Positions 14,454 to 56,844 of a stretch of DNA of 64,000 nucleotides are shown piece by piece. The notes under the pieces are model-generated. The model searched no databases. It was not told the DNA's origin and saw only the letters and a list, made by a program, of their open reading frames with translations. Position 1 is the stretch's first letter; every line of letters begins with the position of its first letter. Source of the stretch: an uncultured Actinomycetota bacterium (GTDB lineage: Bacteria > Actinomycetota > Actinomycetes > Mycobacteriales > CADCTP01); NCBI GenBank assembly GCA_963849885.1, contig CAWKIV010000006.1:653032-717031 (forward strand), given 5' to 3'. The translations under genes and the position numbers were made by a program.

Positions 14454-15136
14454 GCGCCGCGTACGAGCCGCCGCACGGGCCGCCGGAGTTCCCGCCCGGC
14501 CGGCCGCCGCTGCAGCCGATCGTGCCTCGCTGGACCCCGCCGCAGCCCGGCCGCCCGGAGCCGTCCCGGTCGCCGCTGCCCGGCTTCCCGCTGGTCGCGC
14601 CGCCGTCGCCCGGCTCCGCCGAGGACCGGCTGCGGGAGCGCGGGATCGTGCTGCTGTCCGGCTTCCTCGACGGCGCCGCCGCCCAACGGGCCGCGGCCGC
14701 CCTGATGCTGCTGGACGCCGAGCACGACGGGCCGGTCCGGCTGCACCTCGGCTGCCCGGACGGCGACCTCGACGCCGCGCTGCTGCTGGCCGAGACCGTC
14801 GACCTGCTCACCCTGGACACCACCGCGCTGGTCACCGGCGTGCTCGGCGGGCCGGTGCTCGCCGTGCTGGCCGCGGCCGGCCGCCGGGAGGCGCACCGGC
14901 ACGCGTTGCTCCGGCTGCGGGAGCCGACCGGCACCGCGGCCGGCCGGGCCGACCGGCTGGCCGCGGACGCCGAGCAGCACGCCCGGCAGGTCGCCCAGCT
15001 GCACGAGCGGCTGGCCGCGGCGACCGGGCGGGACGCCGCTGAGATCGCCGACGACCTGCGGGCCGGCCGGCTGCTCACCGCCGAGCAGGCCGTCGACTAC
15101 GGCCTGCTCCACGCCGTGCGGCCCGACCGCCGCTGA
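14450..15136 (+). CDS. ClpP-like protein lacking the catalytic triad, with a proline-rich N-terminal extension
   Basis: The ATG at 14450 overlaps the XRE stop (ATGA). Residues about 60-222 are colinear by eye with the E. coli ClpP core (VLLSG...LHLGCPDGDL...LVTGVLGGPV...LRLREP...LLTAEQAVDYGLL). The Ser/His/Asp positions read Gly133/Arg157/Gly206. The first about 55 aa are strongly Pro-rich. Confidence 0.7.
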   Translation: MSAAYEPPHGPPEFPPGRPPLQPIVPRWTPPQPGRPEPSRSPLPGFPLVAPPSPGSAEDRLRERGIVLLSGFLDGAAAQRAAAALMLLDAEHDGPVRLHLGCPDGDLDAALLLAETVDLLTLDTTALVTGVLGGPVLAVLAAAGRREAHRHALLRLREPTGTAAGRADRLAADAEQHARQVAQLHERLAAATGRDAAEIADDLRAGRLLTAEQAVDYGLLHAVRPDRR

Positions 15137-15267
15137 CAGCTCGGCGGCCGCAGCTGACCGGACCGCCCGACCGCCGCTCGCCAGACGGCGGCTACCGCTG
15201 ACCGGACGGCAGCGGCCGGCAACCGGACGGCCCGACCGCCATCGACGGACCAGTTGGTGTCAACGGG

Positions 15268-18553: not shown

Positions 18554-19849
18554 ATGAGGTCGTACGCGCGCGGGGGGCTGCTCGCCCTGGGCACGGCAAT
18601 GGTGATGCTGGTCGCCGCGAGCCCGTCCTGGGCCGCCGGGCCGGTGCTCACCAACCCGGCCAACTGGACGCCGCAGATGGTGGCGCCGGCCGGTGCCGGC
18701 TACGTCCGCCAGCTCACCCCGTGCGGCCCGAACATGTATGCGGTGGGCACGTTCAGTCAGTTCCGCAGCCCGGCTGACGGCGGCGCGGTCTTCACCCGCA
18801 ACAACGCGATGTCGTTCAACGGGACGACCGGGCGGATGACCGCGTTCAACCCCAACACCGACGGCATCGTCAACAGCATCGCGCTGGACCCGGCCGACTG
18901 CTCCACCGCCTACATCGGCGGCAAGTTCAGCACCGTCGGCGGCCAGCCGGCGACCAACCTCGCCGCGGTCGACACGGCCACCGGCGCGCTCAGGACCGGC
19001 TTCAAGCACACCGCCACCGGACAGGTCAGCGCGCTGGTCTTCACGCACGGCCGGGTGCTGGTCGGCGGCTACTTCAACAAGGTCAACGGGGTCGACCGGG
19101 CCAAGCTGGCCAGCCTCCACCCGGTCACCGGCACGCCGGACGACTACCTGACGCTCGGCCTGACCGGCTTCTACCCGGGCCGGACCAACCCGACCCGGGC
19201 GTACAACTTCACGCTCAGCCACGGTGGCGACCGGATGCTGGTCACCGGCGTCTTCACCGCGGTCGGCGGGGTGCACCGGGAGCAGGTCTTCCAGCTCGAC
19301 CTCGGCCCGACCGCGGCCACGCTCAACCCGTGGACGTCGACCGACTTCTACGTGCACTGCGCCGACTCGCTGCCGTTCTACATCCAGGACGCGACCTACT
19401 CGCCGGACGACACCACCGTCTACATCGCCACCACCGGCTACAAGGCGCGCTTCGACCCGCTGCACACGGTGGTCTGCGACGCCACGGCGGCGTACCCGAG
19501 CACCGGCGGCACGGTCGCCCGCAAGTGGGTCAACTACACCGGCTGCGACTCGCTCTACACCGTCGTCGCGGACGAGAGCACCGTGTACGTCGGCGGCCAC
19601 CAGCGCTGGCTGAACGGCGAGAACATCTGCGACCGGGCCGGCGGCGGGGCGCTCGACCGGCCCGGCATCGGCGGCATCGACCCGGTCACCGGCCGGGCCA
19701 CCAGCTGGAACCCGACCCGCTCCCGCGGCGCCGGCGCGGACGACCTGGTGATCGCGTTCGGCGGGCTGTGGGTCGGCAGCGACGACCAGAACACCGCCAC
19801 CCAGTGCGGCCGGGAGTACCACCCCGGCATCTGCTTCCTGCCGTACTGA
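18554..19849 (+). CDS. Secreted beta-propeller repeat protein (DUF5122/delta-60-like repeats)
   Basis: The ATG at 18554 gives a signal peptide (MRSYARGGLLALGTAMVMLVAASPSWA). Repeated GG.F..V.G...L..L motifs are present (IGGKFSTVGGQPATNLAAVD, VGGYFNKVNGVDRAKLASL, VTGVFTAVGGVHREQVFQL). Confidence 0.75.
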   Translation: MRSYARGGLLALGTAMVMLVAASPSWAAGPVLTNPANWTPQMVAPAGAGYVRQLTPCGPNMYAVGTFSQFRSPADGGAVFTRNNAMSFNGTTGRMTAFNPNTDGIVNSIALDPADCSTAYIGGKFSTVGGQPATNLAAVDTATGALRTGFKHTATGQVSALVFTHGRVLVGGYFNKVNGVDRAKLASLHPVTGTPDDYLTLGLTGFYPGRTNPTRAYNFTLSHGGDRMLVTGVFTAVGGVHREQVFQLDLGPTAATLNPWTSTDFYVHCADSLPFYIQDATYSPDDTTVYIATTGYKARFDPLHTVVCDATAAYPSTGGTVARKWVNYTGCDSLYTVVADESTVYVGGHQRWLNGENICDRAGGGALDRPGIGGIDPVTGRATSWNPTRSRGAGADDLVIAFGGLWVGSDDQNTATQCGREYHPGICFLPY

Positions 19850-19883
19850 CGCCGTACTGACCCCGTACTGACCCCGTACGGAC
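19840..19883. repeat. 11-bp tandem repeat x4 (CCGTACTGAC-type) spanning the stop codon
   Basis: Read directly as gccgtactgac / gccgtactgac / cccgtactgac / cccgtacggac. TGA triplets at 19847 (the gene stop), 19858 and 19869 fall in three different frames. Confidence 0.85.
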
Positions 19884-19940
19884 CCGGGCCGGCGCCCGCG
19901 CCGCGCCGGCCCGCCCCGGCGGACCTGCCAAGATGCCGGG

Positions 19941-26789: not shown

Positions 26790-27515
26790 ATGGCGACAGC
26801 GCGGGCGGCGCGACCTCTGTCGACGGCCGAGGCCGTCCTCGTCGCCACGCTCGGATACCTGGTGCTGCTCATCTCGCTCACCGGGGCCCGGATCGCCCGC
26901 GAGAGCGACGCGGAGCCCGTCACCGAGGTGCTCGCGGTGCGACCGGTCGCCCAGGTGCAGCCGGCCGCGGCCGCCCGGGCCGCGCCGGCGCCGACCTGCG
27001 TCGGCCCGACCACGGTGCCGTACTCGTACGCGGCCGCGCCGGGCGTGGTGGAGCCGCTCGCCTTCGGCCCGCCGGTGGAGCCGACCGGGCCGCGCTCGGC
27101 CGCGGCGGTCAACGGCGTGCTGATCCAGCGGCTCTGCGGCGGCCCGACCACGCCGGGCGGGCCGGTGCGCGGGCCGGACCGGCGGCTGTTCGCGGCGATC
27201 GACGCGGCGGTCAACGACCGGGACCCCAACCGGCCGCTCACCCAGGCCCAGTGGGCCGCCGGGGTGGACCAGTTCATCATCCGGGACGGGCTCTTCACCG
27301 ACGCGCAGGTGGTGACCCGGACCGTCCCGGCCGGCGCCCCGACGTTCGGCATGAAGGTGGTGTCCCGGACCCCCGGCGTCGACCCGGTGGTGGTCCGGAC
27401 CCGGATGGCCCGCGCGGACACCAGCCGCTACCTGCTGCTGCCGGTCCGCAGCGCCAGCGGCCGCGTGGTCACCCTCACCCTGCGGCTGCGCTGCGGCTTC
27501 CAGCCGGTCCTCTGA
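26790..27515 (+). CDS. Membrane-anchored hypothetical protein
   Basis: 241 aa with one N-terminal TM helix (AVLVATLGYLVLLISL) and high GC3. No family recognised. Confidence 0.6.
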   Translation: MATARAARPLSTAEAVLVATLGYLVLLISLTGARIARESDAEPVTEVLAVRPVAQVQPAAAARAAPAPTCVGPTTVPYSYAAAPGVVEPLAFGPPVEPTGPRSAAAVNGVLIQRLCGGPTTPGGPVRGPDRRLFAAIDAAVNDRDPNRPLTQAQWAAGVDQFIIRDGLFTDAQVVTRTVPAGAPTFGMKVVSRTPGVDPVVVRTRMARADTSRYLLLPVRSASGRVVTLTLRLRCGFQPVL

Positions 27516-27527
27516 TCCCCGGGCCCC

Positions 27528-27650
27528 GCCGCGAGTGACGGCGGCCCCCCGCGAGTGACGGCGGCCCCCGCGAGTGACGGCGGCTACTGCACGATCACTC
27601 GCGGAAGCCGGACGTCACTCGCGGAAGCCGGACGTCACTCGCGGAGGTGG
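27528..27650. repeat. Inverted tandem-repeat array: 3 x (GCGAGTGACGGCGGCCCC) followed by 3 x (TCACTCGCGGAAGCCGGACG)
   Basis: Left-arm copies read directly at 27531-27550, 27551-27569 and 27570-27584. Right-arm copies are at 27596-27615, 27616-27635 and 27636-27648. CCGCGAGTGACG and CGTCACTCGCGG are reverse complements (12 bp). The array fills the gap between convergent genes ending at 27515 and 27654. Confidence 0.9.
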
Positions 27651-31422: not shown

Positions 31423-32174
31423 TGCCGTCGTACGCGCAGCTGGTCGCCTGCGACCCGCAGGCGTTCGTGTCCGCCGGGCAGGCCTACCAGCGGATGGCGC
31501 AGGGCTTCGGCCGGGTGCGGGCCGCGTTCCAGCAGGGGATGGCGGTGCTGGACGCCAACTGGGTGGGCGTGGCCAAGGACACCGTGCTCGGCCGCAGCCG
31601 GCACCTCGACGGCGGGCTGGCGGCCGGCGGGCAGGAGGCCGACCAGACCGGGCAGACGCTGGTCACCCTCGGCCAGGCGCTGGCGGCCGCGCAGGCGTCG
31701 CTGCGGACCGCGGTGGCGACCGCGCACGGCGTCGGCCTGGTGGTCACCCCGAGCGGCGACGTCTTCAACCCCAACCCGGTCCACAACCAGGCCGGCAACG
31801 CGATGCTCGGGCCGGTGCGGGCGATGATCGCGGCCGCGGTGGCCGCCGGCACCGCGGCGGACTCGGCCGCGGCCGGCCGGATCGGGGTGCTCGCCGCCGG
31901 CAAGCTGGTCAGCACCTTCGGCTCCGGCGGCTCCGGGTCGGCCGCGGTGGTGCAGCAGGTCGCCGCCGTGGCCACCGGACAGTCGCCTGTGGACGGTCCG
32001 CGGACCGCGGCGGTGATCGCCGCGCGGGTGGCCGCCCAGGCCGACTTCGGCGCGCTCGGGCCGGTGGACCGGCGGGAGATCGACGAGGTGGTCGGCCCGG
32101 TCGGCGTGATCGGCGCCGCCGGCCTCGCCGACTGGCTGGCCCGCCGCCCCCCACCCACCCCCTCCCCCGACTGA
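31422..32174 (+). CDS. WXG100-like N-terminal domain protein (N-terminal module of DUF1023-type T7SS-associated proteins)
   Basis: The ATG overlaps the upstream TGA by 1 nt. Contains WxG (DANWVGVAKD) in a helical hairpin context, then a Gly/Ala-rich region. No recognisable C-terminal enzymatic domain. Confidence 0.55.
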   Translation: MPSYAQLVACDPQAFVSAGQAYQRMAQGFGRVRAAFQQGMAVLDANWVGVAKDTVLGRSRHLDGGLAAGGQEADQTGQTLVTLGQALAAAQASLRTAVATAHGVGLVVTPSGDVFNPNPVHNQAGNAMLGPVRAMIAAAVAAGTAADSAAAGRIGVLAAGKLVSTFGSGGSGSAAVVQQVAAVATGQSPVDGPRTAAVIAARVAAQADFGALGPVDRREIDEVVGPVGVIGAAGLADWLARRPPPTPSPD

Positions 32175-32182
32175 CCCGCCCT

Positions 32183-32400
32183 CCCGAGTGGGCACCCTCC
32201 GCCGAGTCGACGGACGCGCTGGCGCGCGAGTGACGGCGCCGGCGCGCGAATGACGGCGGTGGCGCGCGAGTGACGGCGGTGGCGCGCGAGTGACGGCGCG
32301 CTGGCGCGCGAGTGACGGCGGTGGTGGCGTCACTCGGGCGGTCGGGACGTCACTCGGGCGGTCGGGACGTCACTCGGGCGGTGGCGGCGTCGGGGAGTCA
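32183..32400. repeat. Inverted tandem-repeat array: 5 x (GGCGCGCGAGTGACGGCGGT, 20-23 bp) followed by 3 x (CGTCACTCGGGCGGTCGGGA, 20 bp)
   Basis: Left-arm copies start at 32221, 32241, 32261, 32281 and 32303, with degenerate copies at 32183-32220. Right-arm copies are at 32328-32347, 32348-32367 and 32368-32387. The core CGAGTGACG / CGTCACTCG is self-complementary between arms. The array lies between convergent genes ending at 32174 and 32398. Confidence 0.9.
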
Positions 32401-33021
32401 GTCGGGGCGGAGGATGCCGCGGGCCATGGCGGTGGTGACCGCCGCGGTCCGGTCGCCGACCCCGAGCTTCTCGAAGGTGCGCAGCAGGTGCGTCTTCACC
32501 GTCGCCTCGCTGATCAGCAGCACCCGGCCGATCTCCGCGTTGGACAGCCCGCGCGCGACCTGAGCCAGCACCTCCACCTCGCGCCGGGTCAGCGGGTCGG
32601 CGCCGGCCGACCGCACCCGGGTGACCAGCTTCGCCGCCACCGGCGGCGCCAGCACGGTCTCGCCGCGCGCGGCGGCCCGGACCGCGTCGGCCAGGTCCCG
32701 GCGCGGCGTGTCCTTGAGCAGGTAGCCGGTCGCGCCCGCCTCGACCGCGCGGAGGATGTCCGCGTCGGTGTCGTACGTGGTCACCACCAGCACCCGGGCC
32801 GACCCGGCCGCGGTGATCTGCCCGGTCGCGGCGACGCCGTCCACCCCGGGCATGCGCAGGTCCATCAGCACCACGTCCGGACCCAGCTCGGCGGCCAGCC
32901 GGACCGCGTCCTGCCCGGAGCCGGCCTCGCCCACCACGTCGAGGTCGGGCTCCGCGTCGAGCATGGCCCGCAGGCCCTCCCGTACGACCGGGTGGTCGTC
33001 CACCACCAGCACCCTGATCAC
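32398..33021 (-). CDS. NarL/LuxR-family response regulator
   Basis: The GTG at 33021 overlaps the kinase stop. Receiver domain (VLVVDDHPVVREGL...DVVLMDLRMPGVDG) and LuxR HTH (LTRREVEVLAQVARGLSNAEIGRVLLISEATVKTH). Confidence 0.9.
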   Translation of the reverse strand: MIRVLVVDDHPVVREGLRAMLDAEPDLDVVGEAGSGQDAVRLAAELGPDVVLMDLRMPGVDGVAATGQITAAGSARVLVVTTYDTDADILRAVEAGATGYLLKDTPRRDLADAVRAAARGETVLAPPVAAKLVTRVRSAGADPLTRREVEVLAQVARGLSNAEIGRVLLISEATVKTHLLRTFEKLGVGDRTAAVTTAMARGILRPD

Positions 33022-34184
33022 GGCAGTGTCACCCGGACGGTGGTGCCGGCGGCCGGCGCGCTGCGGACCAGCAGGGTGCCGCCGACCTCCTCGACCCGCC
33101 GCCGCATGCCGGCCAGCCCGTAGCCGCGGGCGGGCGCGCCGTCCGGCATGAAGCCGGCCCCGTCGTCGGCGACCGTCAGCTCGGTGCCGGCGGCGCCGTA
33201 CCGCAGGCAGACGGTGACCGCGCACCGCCCGGCGTGCCGCCGCACGTTGGCCAGCGCCTCCTGGGCCGCGCGCAACAGCACCACCTCCTGGTTCGCCGGG
33301 AGCGGCCGCGGCTCGCCGGCCACCTCCACCGCCGCCGGCAGCCCGGTCTCCCCGCCGAAGCGGTCCACCAGCCGGCCGACCGCCTGCGGCAGCGGCGCCG
33401 CCTGCAGGTCCACCGGGGTGAGCGCGGCGACCAGGGAGCGGGCCTCGGCCAGATTCTGCCGGGCGGTCTCCCGGGCCACCGCCAGCCGCCGCCGGGCCGC
33501 GGCCGGATCGGCGTCCACATCGGACTCCGCCAGGTCGACCAGCATGAGCACCGAGGTGAAGCCCTGGGTCAGCGTGTCGTGGATCTCCCGGGCCAGCCGC
33601 TCCCGCTCGGCCAGCACGCCGGCCTGGTGGCTGACCGCGGCCAGCTCGGCCCGGGTGCGCTCCAGCTCGGCGATGACGTCGGCCCGCTGGCCGCTCTGCA
33701 CGATGATCCGGCGGATCCAGGTGCCGAACAGCACCGACGCGCCCAGCGCGAGCACGGTCTGCAGCACCGCCACCACCACCGGCACGTCCAGCACGAGGAC
33801 GCCGACCACGCCGATCCCGACGGTCAGCACGGCCGCCGCAGCCACCGCCTCGCGATACTCCAGCAAGGCCCAGATCTGGGCGTAGGCGACGAAGAAGAGC
33901 AGCGAGAAGAACGGGTAGACGGCGAAGCCGGTGACCGCGACGGCCGTCGCGATCGCGATGTGGGCCCGGCCGCCGCCGGTCGGCCCCGCACAGGAGAAGG
34001 CGCGCACGCCGAGCAGGACGTAGCTGGCCGCGCCGGCGGCGAGCAGCCCCAGCACGACCAGCCGGCGCCCGGTGGACAAGTCGTCGACCGCGGTGGCGAG
34101 CACCGCGACCAGCACGACCAGCACCGCGTACCCCGCGTGCCAGACGGCGCGGCCGCTCTCCCAGGCGTGCCCCTGCTCGGTCAC
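33018..34184 (-). CDS. Sensor histidine kinase (HisKA_3 type)
   Basis: 388 aa with an N-terminal multi-TM region, an H-box (LAREIHDTLTQGF) and an HATPase region (...VADDGAGF...GYGLAGMRRRVEEVGG). Confidence 0.9.
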   Translation of the reverse strand: MTEQGHAWESGRAVWHAGYAVLVVLVAVLATAVDDLSTGRRLVVLGLLAAGAASYVLLGVRAFSCAGPTGGGRAHIAIATAVAVTGFAVYPFFSLLFFVAYAQIWALLEYREAVAAAAVLTVGIGVVGVLVLDVPVVVAVLQTVLALGASVLFGTWIRRIIVQSGQRADVIAELERTRAELAAVSHQAGVLAERERLAREIHDTLTQGFTSVLMLVDLAESDVDADPAAARRRLAVARETARQNLAEARSLVAALTPVDLQAAPLPQAVGRLVDRFGGETGLPAAVEVAGEPRPLPANQEVVLLRAAQEALANVRRHAGRCAVTVCLRYGAAGTELTVADDGAGFMPDGAPARGYGLAGMRRRVEEVGGTLLVRSAPAAGTTVRVTLP

Positions 34185-44419: not shown

Positions 44420-45124
44420 GTGGACAGCCGCCGGCACGCGGTGGCCGGATGGGTCAGGGTTGGACCCGTTCCCCCCGTCCTGGAGGTGGTTGCCGTGGTC
44501 GCCCGTCCCGCTGACCGGACCGATGCCGCGCCGGTCCCGCCGATCCTGCTGCGGCCGCCCGGCTGGTCGGCCGGTGGCCCGCCCGGTGGCCCGCCGGGTG
44601 AGCCGCCCGGCCGGCCGCCGGAGGTGCTGCCGCCGCCCGCCCGGGCCGGCGGCCGGCTGGTGGAGCTGGTCGACGGCGTGCTGCTGGCCACGCCGGCCGG
44701 GTCGGCGCCGCACGCGCGGGCCGCGCGCCGGCTCGGCCGGGCCCTGGAGGCGGCGTGCGAGCCGCCGCTGGAGGTCTTCGCCCCGTTCACGCTGCGGCTG
44801 GAGGGCGAGACCGAGCTGCTGCCCGACGTCGCCGTGGTCGCCGTCGACGACCCGCTCCCCCGCTACCCGCGGGACGTGCGGCTGGTCGCGGAGGTGCTGT
44901 CGCCGCGCAGCCGGCGGACCGACGTGGCGCTGAAGGCGCGGGTCTACGCGGACGCCCGGGTGCCACTCTTCCTCGTGGTCGACCCGGACGCCGTCACGCT
45001 GGCGGTCCACGAGCTGCGCGGCGACGGCTACGTGGAGGTCGCCCGCGCCGGGCGGAGCAGCGCGGCCGCCGTGCCCGAGCCGGTGCCGGTGCTGCTCAGC
45101 CCGGCCGACCTGATCCGCCCCTGA
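44420..45124 (+). CDS. Uma2 (DUF820) family endonuclease-like protein
   Basis: The C-terminal about 170 aa (RLVELVDGVLLATPAGSAPHA...LLPDVAVV...LVAEVLSPRSRRTDVALKARVYADARVPLFLVVDP) fit the Uma2 pattern. The Pro/Gly-rich N-terminus leaves the true start uncertain. Confidence 0.65.
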   Translation: MDSRRHAVAGWVRVGPVPPVLEVVAVVARPADRTDAAPVPPILLRPPGWSAGGPPGGPPGEPPGRPPEVLPPPARAGGRLVELVDGVLLATPAGSAPHARAARRLGRALEAACEPPLEVFAPFTLRLEGETELLPDVAVVAVDDPLPRYPRDVRLVAEVLSPRSRRTDVALKARVYADARVPLFLVVDPDAVTLAVHELRGDGYVEVARAGRSSAAAVPEPVPVLLSPADLIRP

Positions 45125-45201
45125 CCGGCGGCGCAGCGGTGTGGCAGAGCGAGGGGGCGGCGGTGCACGGCGGCGCGGCGGCAGGACGTAACCTGCCCGG
45201 A

Positions 45202-46392
45202 GTGAGGGCAGTGCGGGCGGTCGCGGTCGCCGCGGCGGTGACGGTCGGCGTGGTGGCGGTGGGCGCGGCGGGCCCGGCCTGGGCGGCGCCGGCGGTGGCG
45301 CCGCAGCCGAGGCCGACGGCCACCCCGACGCCGGAGCCGCCGCTGCCCGGGCAGGGCGCCGACGGCCAGACGGTGGGCGGCCCGCGGCTGGCCAGCCGGG
45401 GGCTGGTGCTGGCGCCGGGCGCGCCGAAGCCACCCAAGGACCTGACCGCGCACGGCTGGCTGGTGGCCGACCTCGACACCGGCGAGGTGCTCGGCGCGCG
45501 GGACGCGCACGGGCGCTACCCGCCGGCCAGCACGCTGAAGATGCTGACCGCGCTGACGCTGCTGCCGAAGATCAAGGACCGGCGGGTGCTGCTGACCGCG
45601 ACCGGCTCGGACGTCAACGTCGACGGCACCCGGGTCGGCCTGGTCGTCAACGGGCGCTACACGCTGGACGTGCTGTTCCAGGCGATGCTGATGGCCTCCG
45701 CCAACGACGCGGCCAACGCGCTGGCCCGGGCGGCGGGCGGCACCGCCCGCACGCTGACCGAGATGGACGAGGTGGCGCACCGGCTGCAGGCCTTCGACAC
45801 GCACGCGGCGACGCCGTCCGGGTTGGACGGTCCGGGTCAGCTGACCTCGGCGTACGACCTGGCGCTGATCGCGCGGGCGGCGCTGGCCCGGTCCGACTTC
45901 CGGAAGTACACCGCCCAGCTGCGGGGGTGGATCCCGGCGCAGAAGCCGAAGTACAAGCGGTTCGAGTTCGCCAACGGCAACAGGCTGCTGTACGAGTACC
46001 AAGGGGCGATCGGCGGGAAGAACGGGTTCACCGACGCGGCCCGGCACACCTTCGTCGGGGCCGCCAAGCGCGGGACCCGGCGGCTGGTGGTCACGCTGAT
46101 GTTCGGCGAGCAGACGCCGGTGCGGATGTCGGTGCAGGCGGCGCGCCTGCTCGACTGGGGCTTCGCGCAGCGGTCGGCGGTGCCGGTCGGCGCGCTGGTC
46201 GATCCGGTGGACCCCGCCGCGATGCCGACGCCCACGTCCAGCCCGGTGCCCGAGTTGCGGCCCGCCTCGGCCGGCCCGTCCGACTCCGGCGGGGACGGCC
46301 CGCCGCTGCTCCCGGTCGCCGCCGCCCTCGGCGCCGGGCTCCTGGTCCTCGCCACCGGCTACGCCGTCACCACCCGCCGCCGCCGCACCTGA
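45202..46392 (+). CDS. D-alanyl-D-alanine carboxypeptidase (serine-type PBP) with C-terminal membrane anchor
   Basis: GTG at 45202 and a signal peptide. SxxK (ASTLK), SxN (SAND) and KxG (GKNGFTD) motifs, plus a C-terminal TM helix and RRRR tail. Confidence 0.85.
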   Translation: MRAVRAVAVAAAVTVGVVAVGAAGPAWAAPAVAPQPRPTATPTPEPPLPGQGADGQTVGGPRLASRGLVLAPGAPKPPKDLTAHGWLVADLDTGEVLGARDAHGRYPPASTLKMLTALTLLPKIKDRRVLLTATGSDVNVDGTRVGLVVNGRYTLDVLFQAMLMASANDAANALARAAGGTARTLTEMDEVAHRLQAFDTHAATPSGLDGPGQLTSAYDLALIARAALARSDFRKYTAQLRGWIPAQKPKYKRFEFANGNRLLYEYQGAIGGKNGFTDAARHTFVGAAKRGTRRLVVTLMFGEQTPVRMSVQAARLLDWGFAQRSAVPVGALVDPVDPAAMPTPTSSPVPELRPASAGPSDSGGDGPPLLPVAAALGAGLLVLATGYAVTTRRRRT

Positions 46393-46443
46393 CCGGCAGC
46401 AGACCGGCAGCGCGCCCGCCGCCGCGCAGCCACCGCCCCGCCG

Positions 46444-46541
46444 CAAGCCGGACCCGTGCAGCCGACCCGCGCAGCCGGACCCGCGCAGCCGGACCCGCGC
46501 AGCCGGAAACCGCCGACCCGGCGGGTCAGCGGCGGGTCAGC
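46444..46541. repeat. 14-bp tandem repeat x5 (GCAGCCGGACCCGC-type) plus 11-bp x2 (GGCGGGTCAGC)
   Basis: Read directly as caagccggacccgt / gcagccgacccgc / gcagccggacccgc / gcagccggacccgc / gcagccggaaaccgc (46444-46513), then ggcgggtcagc x2 (46520-46541). Confidence 0.85.
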
Positions 46542-47729
46542 GGCGGCGGCGGAGGTAGCGGGATCCGGCCGCGGCGGCGCCGGCGCCGAGGGCGGCTCCG
46601 GTGCCCACCAGCACGCCGGCCACCGCGGCGGGGTTCGGCGAGCCGTTGCGCCGGTCGGCGGCTCCGGCACCGGCACCGGCGCCGCATCGCCGGCGGCTCC
46701 CGCGCCAGCGGCGGCGCCCGCGCCGGCCGCGGCGGTCCGGCCGATCGTGGGGGCGGGGCCGACCAGGCCGCGCCCGCCCGGCGGGCGGTCGTCGACGCCC
46801 ACGGCGATGCCCTCTTCCGGCGTGTCCGTGCACTCGTCCGCCGCCGCCGGCTGCCGGCCGGTCGCCGTCCAGGCCGCGGCCAGCAGCATGAAGCGGGAGA
46901 CCAGGTCGATCCAGATCAGCAGCCCGACCGCGCTGGCGAAGACCCCGTACGTCGGGTTGCCGGTCACCCGGGTCAGGTAGAAGGTGCCGACCACCTTGAG
47001 CACCTCGTAGCCGACCGCGGCCAGCAGCGCTCCGCTGAGCACCGTCCGGTAACGCACCGGCCGCCGCGGCAGCCGGACGAACAACCAGGCGAAGATCAGC
47101 GTGTCCGCGGCCAGCGCCAGCGCGAGGCCGACCGCCGTGACCAGCGTCCCCATCCCCCACACGCCGTCCAGCCCGACCGCCTTCACCAGCTGGTCGGCCG
47201 CGGCGGTGCCGCCCGCGGTGAGGCCGATCGACAGCAGGATCCCCAGCCCGAGCCCGGCCAGCACGAGCAGGTCACCCAGCTTGGCCTTGAGGAACTTCTC
47301 CTCGGTCCGCTCGCAGCTCCACACCACCTGCAGCGCGGTGCGCAGGTTGCCGATCCAGCCGAGCCCGACGAAGGCCACACCGGCGAGACCGATCAGGCCG
47401 ATGGCCCCCCGGTTGGCGATGATCGAGGTGACCGAGTCGGACAGCTGGGTGCCCAGGTCGCCGGGGACGTTGTCGCGGATCAGCTCCTGCAGGTCCTGCT
47501 GCAGCGCGTCGTTGTTGGCCAGCACGAAGCCGGCGACCGAGATGGCGAGCAGGATCAGCGGGAAGAGCGCGAGGAAGCTGAAGTAGGTGATCGCCGCGGC
47601 GAGGTGGTCGCCGTTGGTGGACCTGTAGCGCTGGTAGGCCCGGACCAGGTGGTCCAGCCAGGGGAGGCGCTGCCGCAGCCGGCGCAGAGTGCCGGTGGCG
47701 CGGTCCTTGAGGCCGCCGGAGCCGGCCAC
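46537..47729 (-). CDS. YihY/BrkB family membrane protein; C-terminal frame ambiguous
   Basis: The N-terminal about 300 aa are clear (DHLAAAITYFSFLALFPLILL...). The start frame runs on to 46359 but becomes W/C/R-rich with falling GC3. A second frame gives a plausible TM plus basic tail (NPAAVAGVLVGTGAALGAGAAAAGSRYLRRRR, stop at 46537). A frame switch near 46655-46690 is therefore inferred. Confidence 0.7.
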
Positions 47730-56734: not shown

Positions 56735-56821
56735 AGAGCACTGGCAAGAAACGAGAGCAGTGCTCTTGACAGCTGCGCACCGGACAGCGAGACTGGTGCT
56801 CGCAAACGAGAGCAGTGCTCT
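56735..56821. promoter_or_regulatory. Candidate TetR operators in a divergent promoter region
   Basis: Inverted repeat AGAGCACTG (56735-56743) / CAGTGCTCT (56758-56766). An 18-bp direct repeat AAACGAGAGCAGTGCTCT occurs at 56749-56766 and 56804-56821. TTGACA lies at 56766-56771. The local GC dip sits between the divergent TetR and oxidoreductase genes. Confidence 0.55.
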
Positions 56822-56844
56822 CGTATCGAGCGGAGGAGGACGTG

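Follow-up and report, generated by a model that had tools for sequence, protein, structure and literature searches.

At locus 2 of the window, the whole 64,000-nucleotide stretch of DNA analysed here, the 220 bases that separate two facing genes represent an expanded copy of a small repeat that forms a hairpin and is built on the invariant word CGAGTGACGG. On the sequence evidence, this word is the invariant 10-bp core that defines a repeat family, and the family is small, non-coding, palindromic and dispersed in soil Actinobacteria. On balance, we favour the reading of the element as a REP/TRIT-like dispersed palindrome of gene 3′ ends, whose arms would have been expanded by slippage and whose transcript would fold to a long hairpin. 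As judged from the predicted folds and the position at gene ends, the repeat probably marks or protects transcript ends.

The features of both window loci and of the genes beside locus 2 are collected in Table 1. On direct reading, the left units of locus 2 start at 32221, 32241, 32261, 32281 (the 22-bp unit) and 32303. The core CGAGTGACG is found at 32227, 32267, 32287 and 32309, and the variant CGAATGACG at 32247, where GAATGAC replaces GAGTGAC in the second unit. The right units occupy 32328-32347, 32348-32367 and 32368-32387, and the third one departs in its final 5 nt. The loop of the predicted hairpin is the 10 nt separating the innermost cores, 32309-32317 and 32328-32336. All of the unit and core coordinates in an earlier note on this DNA agreed with the sequence when it was read again. 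The array also lies, as the earlier note had it, between convergent gene ends, and both stop positions (32174 and 32398) are correct. The degenerate copies that it had mentioned upstream of the left arm could be located as three units. They follow each other at 17-24 bp spacing, which is the same register as the array, and the counterpart of the third one in L001, another assembly of the same species, has a perfect core.

The degenerate units reach the stop codons of both flanking genes. The stop TGA of the hypothetical gene (32172-32174) sits in the outermost degenerate unit CGACTGACC (32168-32176), and the stop of the response regulator is the TCA at 32398-32400. The inverted symmetry extends into the last codons of both genes (32156-32180 against 32392-32416, 76% complementary), and the last six codons of the response regulator join the extended palindrome. 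Tandem Repeats Finder scores were 165/191 for the left arm and 111 for the right arm. For the 9-mer CGAGTGACG, 1.9 copies would be expected in the window and 12 are present; 0 of 100 shuffles reach this number, and all 12 copies fall within the arrays of locus 1 and locus 2. Outside the arrays, GAGTGAC was seen 0 times against 1.3-4.5 expected from higher-order Markov models, which is not a meaningful avoidance. The hypothetical gene has a weak WXG100-like N-terminus (Pfam E = 0.0019, under the curated cut-off), and the response regulator gene comes after its histidine kinase gene. At locus 1, the left cores are at 27532, 27552 and 27571 and the right units at 27592 (degenerate), 27613 and 27633. 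This sister array is flanked by the stop of a hypothetical gene (27515, +) and that of a MerR/TipAS gene (27654, -).

Table 1. Positions of the repeat arrays and of the genes flanking locus 2, in coordinates of the window
Feature	Position	Strand	Description
Left arm, locus 2	32221-32322	+	Five tandem units GGCGCGCGAGTGACGGCGGT of 20, 20, 20, 22 and 20 bp
Palindrome centre, locus 2	32323-32327	.	5 nt between the arms
Right arm, locus 2	32328-32387	+	Three tandem 20-bp units CGTCACTCGGGCGGTCGGGA, inverted; core CGTCACTCG, the reverse complement of the left core
Three degenerate left-arm units	32168-32220	+	Cores CGACTGACC at 32168, CGAGTGGGC at 32185 and CGAGTCGACGG at 32203
Degenerate outermost right unit	32388-32405	+	AGTCAGTCG, the reverse complement of CGACTGACT; holds the response-regulator stop
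Hypothetical gene, upstream convergent	31437-32174	+	From the ORF list; 3′ part by GC3-based call; start approximate
NarL/LuxR-type response regulator, downstream convergent	32398-33060	-	Pfam Response_reg 2.3e-27, GerE 3.8e-18
Sister locus 1	27522-27645	+	3 left + 3 right units; hairpin; R1 match

The basic member of the family is a palindrome of ~70-85 bp with two direct cores 19-20 bp apart and two inverted cores in the other arm. A single strand of it folds to a hairpin of roughly 40 bp. A recurrent form with a 19-bp period reads GCC-GAGTGACG-GAT(T/C)nnnnG(C/T)C-GAGTGACG-GCnnnnnnGGC-CGTCACTC-Gnnnnn(A/G)ATC-CGTCACTC-GGC. An array was assigned to the family when it had at least two exact or near-exact direct cores at a 19-23-bp period and inverted copies in a second arm. 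Both window loci have this composition, with 5(+3)+3(+1) units at locus 2 and 3+3 at locus 1. In an alignment of eleven 2+2 copies, each core position is invariant and the spacers are variable. The RNAalifold consensus consists of two invariant helices (14 and 11 bp), a variable 7+7 internal loop and an 8-nt loop, and its compensatory changes are few and confined to the helix edges. A covariance model, R1, was built from 11 foreign copies (10 from metagenome contigs and one from Flexivirga endophytica, L046), the window loci being left out. R1 matched locus 1 (27538-27635) with 35.9 bits and E = 9e-6 and locus 2 (32287-32356) with 28.8 bits and E = 4.5e-4, and it found nothing else in the 64-kb window. 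It also matched L001, L002, L123, L060, L064, L090, L041 and L237. The proposal that the two loci belong to a dispersed family rather than to a one-off slippage event is therefore borne out, because the same core and architecture stand at many unrelated soil-actinobacterial loci and R1 recognises both window loci.

Among the matches listed, exact-core arrays with periods of 19-23 bp were found in F. endophytica, F. caeni, Nocardioides albus and N. jiangsuensis, as well as in a Jatrophihabitantaceae MAG and several Actinomycetota MAGs, one of which has three loci. Cultured carriers of related arrays are F. endophytica CGMCC 1.15085 and N. albus JCM 3185. The YchF gene beside one 2+2 copy places the contigs with this recurrent form among uncultured Pseudonocardiales/Jatrophihabitantaceae-like bacteria. 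A sharper metagenome scan for core arrays returned 120 loci. Of the 91 high-GC arrays that were classified, 41 are one-armed; among the others, both arms are exact in 37 and the second arm is degenerate in 13. Both arm orders are found. A populous subfamily is made of 22-bp units, CCGGCAC-GAGTGACGG-CTCGACC, in head-to-tail sets of 2-10, and each of these units could, by eye, form a small stem-loop. In an Actinomycetota MAG (L072:80-290), ten 22-bp units GGCACG(GT/AA)TGACGGCTCGACCA stand in a row; TGACGG is kept in all of them and the GAG of the core is variable. The scan of one genome per species with CGAGTGACG-N9-14-CGAGTGACG was only weakly specific, and most of its at least 120 matches are (CGAGTGA)n 7-nt microsatellites of other phyla. 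With up to more than 20 copies, these occur, among the matches listed, in Chloroflexota, Bacteroidota, Verrucomicrobiota, Acidobacteriota, Chlorobiota and others (for example L005, L007, L043, L045, L076 and L119), and inverted sets are present in L032, L086, L098 and L043.

Rfam 15 gave 0 matches in the window at the gathering threshold, and E-value scans of the two loci and of ten family members gave nothing real; at E <= 1, spurious sub-threshold matches to miRNA hairpins were all that the family members drew. Spurious miRNA-model matches also flagged two more strong hairpins 3′ of the element in L231 (1512-1561 and 1651-1722). A literature search for the core sequence returned unrelated primers only, and no curated description of the CGAGTGACGG-core family was found.

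The family is concentrated at gene ends. Of the 37 two-armed arrays, ~31 are faced by a gene 3′ end no more than ~62 nt away, and 10-15 stand in the spacer of a convergent gene pair; these counts are approximate because the crude GC3-based gene calls misassigned L176. The copy in L176 is a full element in the divergent rmuC-ychF spacer, a promoter region. One-armed arrays share this 3′-end bias, whichever way they point with respect to the gene. The core TGA is itself the stop of the adjacent ORF in ~8 of the 37 two-armed arrays (the outermost core) and in 7 of the 16 one-armed arrays having a sense-side gene. This TGA may explain the tolerance of insertions that clip gene ends.

The TGA codons were also considered as the purpose of the array. 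Their positions and frames at locus 2, together with those of TCA, are as the earlier note reported, and they cover three frames on both strands. Such coverage, the ORF stops counted above and the variants that retain TGACGG while GAG varies would suit a fail-safe cassette, in which the core TGA, recurring at a period not divisible by three, would halt ribosomes in all frames of both strands. The cassette assumes a genome where out-of-frame stops are rare. However, the coverage of all frames did not hold for the family as a whole. In the basic element each arm has just two TGAs, and one array, that of N. albus, has a 21-bp period. Besides, the one-armed arrays occur in either orientation, one copy lies in a promoter region, and normal stop codons stand upstream of most copies. 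We regard the cassette as very improbable. The TGA phasing is real at locus 2 but incidental for the family.

Two more assemblies of the same species, L001 and L002, were found via the adenosine deaminase gene between the two loci, and their flanks are 99.0-100% identical to the window. The unit counts, as read from these metagenome assemblies, are 5+3 in the window, 4+5 in L001 and 6+6 in L002 for locus 2, and 3+3, 3+4 and 5+7, in the same order, for locus 1. The question of copy number among close relatives, raised before, is thus answered for both loci: it differs between assemblies with 99-100% identical flanks. The spacers differ as well. The right-arm spacer of locus 1 is GGAAGCC in the window and GGATGCC, six times, in L002, and both are present in L001. 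The left-arm spacers of locus 2 across the three assemblies are GCGGTGGCG, GCGCCCTCC and GA(C/G)GTGGTG, and the dominant spacer variant differs among the three near-identical assemblies. This comparison of strains shows that the direct units of each arm are gained and lost between near-identical strains and that spacers are homogenised within an arm, as in a VNTR. Tandem repeats are error-prone in assembly and unit numbers vary among assemblies, and an artefact, a repeat collapsed or expanded by the assembler, could be suspected for this reason. However, an array at the same site is present in four independent assemblies (the window, L001, L002 and L123), related arrays exist in cultured-isolate genomes, and the arrays differ not just in unit number but also by substitutions within the units. 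An artefact can practically be discounted.

In mycobacteria, MIRU-VNTR loci are intergenic tandem repeats whose unit number varies among close strains, and they can therefore be used as typing markers. Located inside operons, MIRUs have direct units of 40-100 bp and neither an inverted partner arm nor a hairpin. The CGAGTGACGG arrays are similar to them in the variation of unit number among close strains but differ by their inverted arm and hairpin. They are VNTR-like markers that tell apart strains of uncultured soil lineages with >99% identical flanks. They also call for care in assembly and gene calling because stop codons and last codons lie inside the repeat.

Going by the names of its homologues, the window comes from an uncultured soil 'Mycobacteriales bacterium' lineage. 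The age of the two arrays was estimated from more distant relatives, first of all L123, whose adenosine deaminase is 94% identical in amino acids and whose flanks are 87-94% identical in nucleotides to the window. At the locus 2 site it has an array of two CGCGAGTGACGGCACCG and six CCGTCAGTCGGGCGGGG units, the last CCGTCAGTCGGGCGGGG unit including the stop of the hypothetical gene. As an array already stands there in L123, the one at locus 2 predates the species. At the locus 1 site, L123, L124 and L125 have just a plain GC hairpin (core CCACCGG / CCGGTGG), which is unrelated in sequence to the locus 1 array. Therefore, the locus 1 array is young and stands in place of a terminator-like hairpin. 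When L123:8600-8660 was compared with positions 32392-32420 of the window, the histidine kinase/response regulator pair was found to be missing from L123. It retains ~20 nt matching the 3′ end of the regulator gene (GCATCCTCCGCCCCGAC) beside the array, and this remnant reflects either a deletion ending at the array or a segment belonging to the element. In L124 (12960-13060), a tandem repeat GGCACGGC(G/C)C(C/G)GGGC lies directly 3′ of the orthologue of the window gene 26790-27515.

Copies at different loci can be almost identical. L154 and L230 have the 84-bp element alone in common, at 95% identity including the spacers, and L154 and L196 have the element alone in common at 90% identity. In orthologous pairs, the cores are identical while the spacers drift: L159/L230 are 92% identical overall, and L175/L232 are 89.5% identical overall with spacers ~70% identical by our own count. 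In the rmuC-ychF spacer, the element is complete in L176, absent from L246 (YchF 94% identical) and L250, and decayed in L249. A target-site duplication was not visible between the filled L176 and the empty L246, nor around L154 and L230. Compared with a MITE, the element has the inverted arms without a visible target-site duplication at these sites. An all-against-all BLAST of 381 ORFs within 4 kb of ~90 arrays revealed no recurring protein family. Repeated families among these ORFs were common ABC ATPase paralogues and the syntenic genes of L001, L002 and L123 only, and no transposase was found among them. A BLAST search for a parent element in 72,556 plasmids and 50,697 phages gave no match. 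Among viral contigs, the single match inspected is unrelated to the family. It is a 12-nt tandem repeat GCGCGAGTGATG with a partial core match at L251:7640-7750 (IMGVR_UViG_3300031772_001620), directly upstream of an ORF beginning like a serine recombinase. A core copy 4 kb off in L116 was considered as the far end of a larger element and rejected as a single chance occurrence in a coding region.

Fast turnover and presence/absence polymorphism are also expected of selfish or neutral DNA without host function, which would survive where it is least harmful (3′ of stops and in convergent spacers), the array being then no more than a mutational hotspot. The decayed copy in L249 and the young copy at locus 1, which replaced an existing hairpin, are consistent with this account, as are other tandem duplications at gene 3′ ends in the window and the existence of arrays with other cores. 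On the other hand, a core kept so strictly constant in distant lineages calls for continued selection, or at least for a core-specific enzyme that is still active, and the locus 2 array has been retained since the split from L123. We consider an element without host function to be somewhat unlikely.

The folding of the arrays was evaluated against shuffled sequences. Locus 1 forms an almost perfect 3+3 hairpin (-103.7 kcal/mol, z = -8.65). Locus 2 as a whole (z = -2.7 and -3.8) is less exceptional because of its surplus left units, and its central 80 nt (32281-32360) are a 2+2 hairpin with z = -8.3. One 2+2 copy folds at z = -16.4. For isolated 20-bp units, the folds are no more stable than those of shuffles (z = -0.31, +1.06, -0.50 and +1.04). 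Therefore, the pairing is between arms and not within units. A U-tract or T-run after the hairpin was absent at locus 1 and locus 2, and a terminator consensus scan found no site there. Thus, of the two parts of a canonical intrinsic terminator, the GC-rich hairpin is present and the U-tract is absent. Mycobacterial RNA polymerase requires a U-tract at intrinsic terminators in vitro (PMC3993855). In M. tuberculosis, predicted hairpin-type terminators including TRIT have been published to overlap just 2-4% of mapped 3′ ends. Considering the absent U-tract and these mycobacterial data, simple intrinsic termination is doubtful. Strand-specific selection on the RNA was not apparent from sense and antisense folding energies, the difference being not significant (n = 9, p = 0.30). 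Like the bidirectional or 'I-shaped' terminators known from high-GC bacteria, the arrays have a GC-rich hairpin that lacks a U-tract and sits exactly between converging stops. Ordinary terminator hairpins, however, are locus-specific in sequence, and they have neither an invariant 10-bp word across genomes nor modular arrays. As a palindrome of conserved sequence at stop codons beyond Mycobacterium, the element offers a defined test sequence for termination without U-tracts in high-GC Actinobacteria.

By description only, the nearest analogue of the CGAGTGACGG family is TRIT ('Tuberculosis Rho-independent terminator'), which has 147 copies in M. tuberculosis and was reported to be confined to Mycobacterium (Gardner et al. 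2011, PMC3152330). TRIT is also a scattered palindromic hairpin conserved in sequence and structure, found at gene termini, often overlapping the stop and mostly bidirectional, and its authors proposed a factor reading the conserved duplex (PMC3152330). The overlap with stops at gene termini is also seen at locus 2, where the outermost units contain the stop codons of both genes. In contrast to the Mycobacterium-restricted TRIT, the CGAGTGACGG family is found in other actinobacterial lineages, and direct-repeat arms and unit-number variation are not described for TRIT. R1 had no match in the 20-kb regions around hspX of M. tuberculosis and M. kansasii (~40 kb of unique DNA), a weak negative, and no recognisable TRIT was present in the same samples.

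The GTAG- and CGTC-tagged REP/BIME/REPIN elements (Di Nocera et al. 2013, PMC3733652) are likewise short dispersed extragenic palindromes, mainly at gene 3′ ends. They lie between convergent or co-directional genes, form clusters of variable composition and are transcribed by read-through, and those of the CGTC type have no dedicated transposase nearby (PMC3733652). The differences concern the unit. A REP unit is the hairpin itself, an imperfect palindrome with a stem of 5-13 bp, a loop, an unpaired GTAG/CGTC tag at one end and a short tail (PMC3733652), whereas a single 20-bp unit of the present arrays does not fold (z about 0), and the CGTC opening the right-arm core is paired with the GACG of the left arm in every predicted structure. 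Moreover, the arms here are head-to-tail, an arrangement that is negligible for CGTC repeats, and REPs were not reported in Actinobacteria (PMC3733652). REP/REPIN elements typically flank a cognate RAYT (Y1 transposase) gene, and no protein family recurs within 4 kb of the ~90 arrays examined here. If the family is mobile, it would represent REP-like dispersed palindromes in Actinobacteria, unreported in that survey (PMC3733652). The TAACTGA heptamers of Beggiatoaceae and cyanobacteria (PMC4679880) are similar in being TGA-containing direct repeats with stops in all frames, sometimes overlapping the stop of the upstream gene, and patchy in their phylogenetic distribution (PMC4679880). However, they consist of 7-nt units without spacers, are mostly upstream of genes and do not form palindromic arrays (PMC4679880). 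The (CGAGTGA)n microsatellites of other phyla resemble them more than the CGAGTGACGG element does. A CRISPR array was rejected, because the units are contiguous at a 20-bp period and the 10-11-nt 'spacers' are repeated and homogenised, in contrast to repeats of 24-48 bp with unique spacers of similar length.

The core, and not the hairpin, is common to all arrays. The case for a core-reading factor depends mainly on this point, and for the same reason we give moderate confidence at most to a terminator acting through structure only. That the 10-bp core is the recognition site of a dedicated actinobacterial protein, either a duplex-binding 3′-end factor or an HUH/RAYT-like single-strand copying enzyme, is an unlikely proposal. 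In the first version, the protein would bind the conserved duplex at gene ends and lead to 3′-end formation in a phylum largely without U-tract terminators. In the second, a new HUH/RAYT-like single-strand enzyme would copy the palindromes. In either version, the multi-unit arrays would be multi-site landing pads whose size tunes the effect. The interest of the family would rise if such a factor exists, and the element could be used as bait for finding whatever reads the core.

A related reading makes the hairpin secondary. A sequence-specific protein would bind the cores as an array of sites, either in duplex DNA or in a dsRNA stem, and the number of sites would tune occupancy. Candidate readers are a roadblock or termination factor, a nucleoid or topology protein at convergent ends, and a recombinase. 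This reading is suggested by the 10-bp core, which does not vary from genus to genus, in contrast to the spacers, which differ and often lack complementarity between arms; at locus 2, the arm spacers match at just ~12 of 20 positions. One-armed arrays of 3-6 units are common, both arm orders occur, the 19-23 bp periods are near two helical turns, and the TRIT authors came to a similar idea for their motif. However, neither a candidate protein nor a conserved neighbouring gene was found within 4 kb of ~90 arrays, the sites are not strictly phased at a spacing of 19-23 bp, and just two sites are present in 64 kb. The identity of whole elements at unrelated loci is also explained more simply by copying. 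We therefore consider an array of protein sites with a secondary hairpin to be quite unlikely.

The REP/TRIT-like palindrome with slippage-expanded arms, which we prefer, has three parts. First, the number of units would change by slipped-strand mispairing, aided by the many different registers in which a multi-unit palindrome can pair. Second, for the mode of spread, we infer that new copies are made by a trans-acting enzyme recognising the core. The core would then be invariant while the spacers drift because of this core-recognising copying enzyme. Third, for the effect on transcripts, we infer that read-through transcripts of both flanking genes fold into a long GC-rich hairpin. The hairpin would define or protect 3′ ends and limit transcription into the antisense strand of the neighbouring gene, and it would take the place held in relatives by a plain terminator-like hairpin. 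Besides the absent U-tract, the non-significant strand difference and the failure to find a transposase, a recurrent neighbouring gene or a target-site duplication at the places inspected, further observations count against this explanation: 41 of the 91 arrays are one-armed and incapable of a long hairpin, the layout of the 22-bp-period subfamily differs, and one full copy stands in a divergent promoter region.

Other repeats were noticed during the analysis. Gene ends in the source genome seem generally prone to short tandem duplication. In the window, tandem duplications at gene 3′ ends with a unit that includes the TGA stop are found at 920-981, 15121-15207 and 19841-19885, the last one being CCGTACTGAC in four copies. 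A third inverted tandem array with a different core lies at 46433-46546 and consists of (AGCCGGACCCGCGC) x4.5 followed by (CGGCGGGTCAG) x2.5, where GGACCCGC is complementary to GCGGGTC. It adjoins the stop of the ORF 44755-46392 (+) and is possibly inside the low-complexity 3′ tail of the ORF 46359-47729 (-). Flexivirga endophytica has a 1+2 palindromic repeat with another core, GAGAGGACACCCG, at L046:315-381, ~5 kb from its CGAGTGACGG element. Finally, at 56735-56824 of the window, the palindrome AGAGCACTG ... CAGTGCTCT occurs twice in the spacer upstream of a gene starting near 56844, and these paired palindromes resemble a pair of operator sites.
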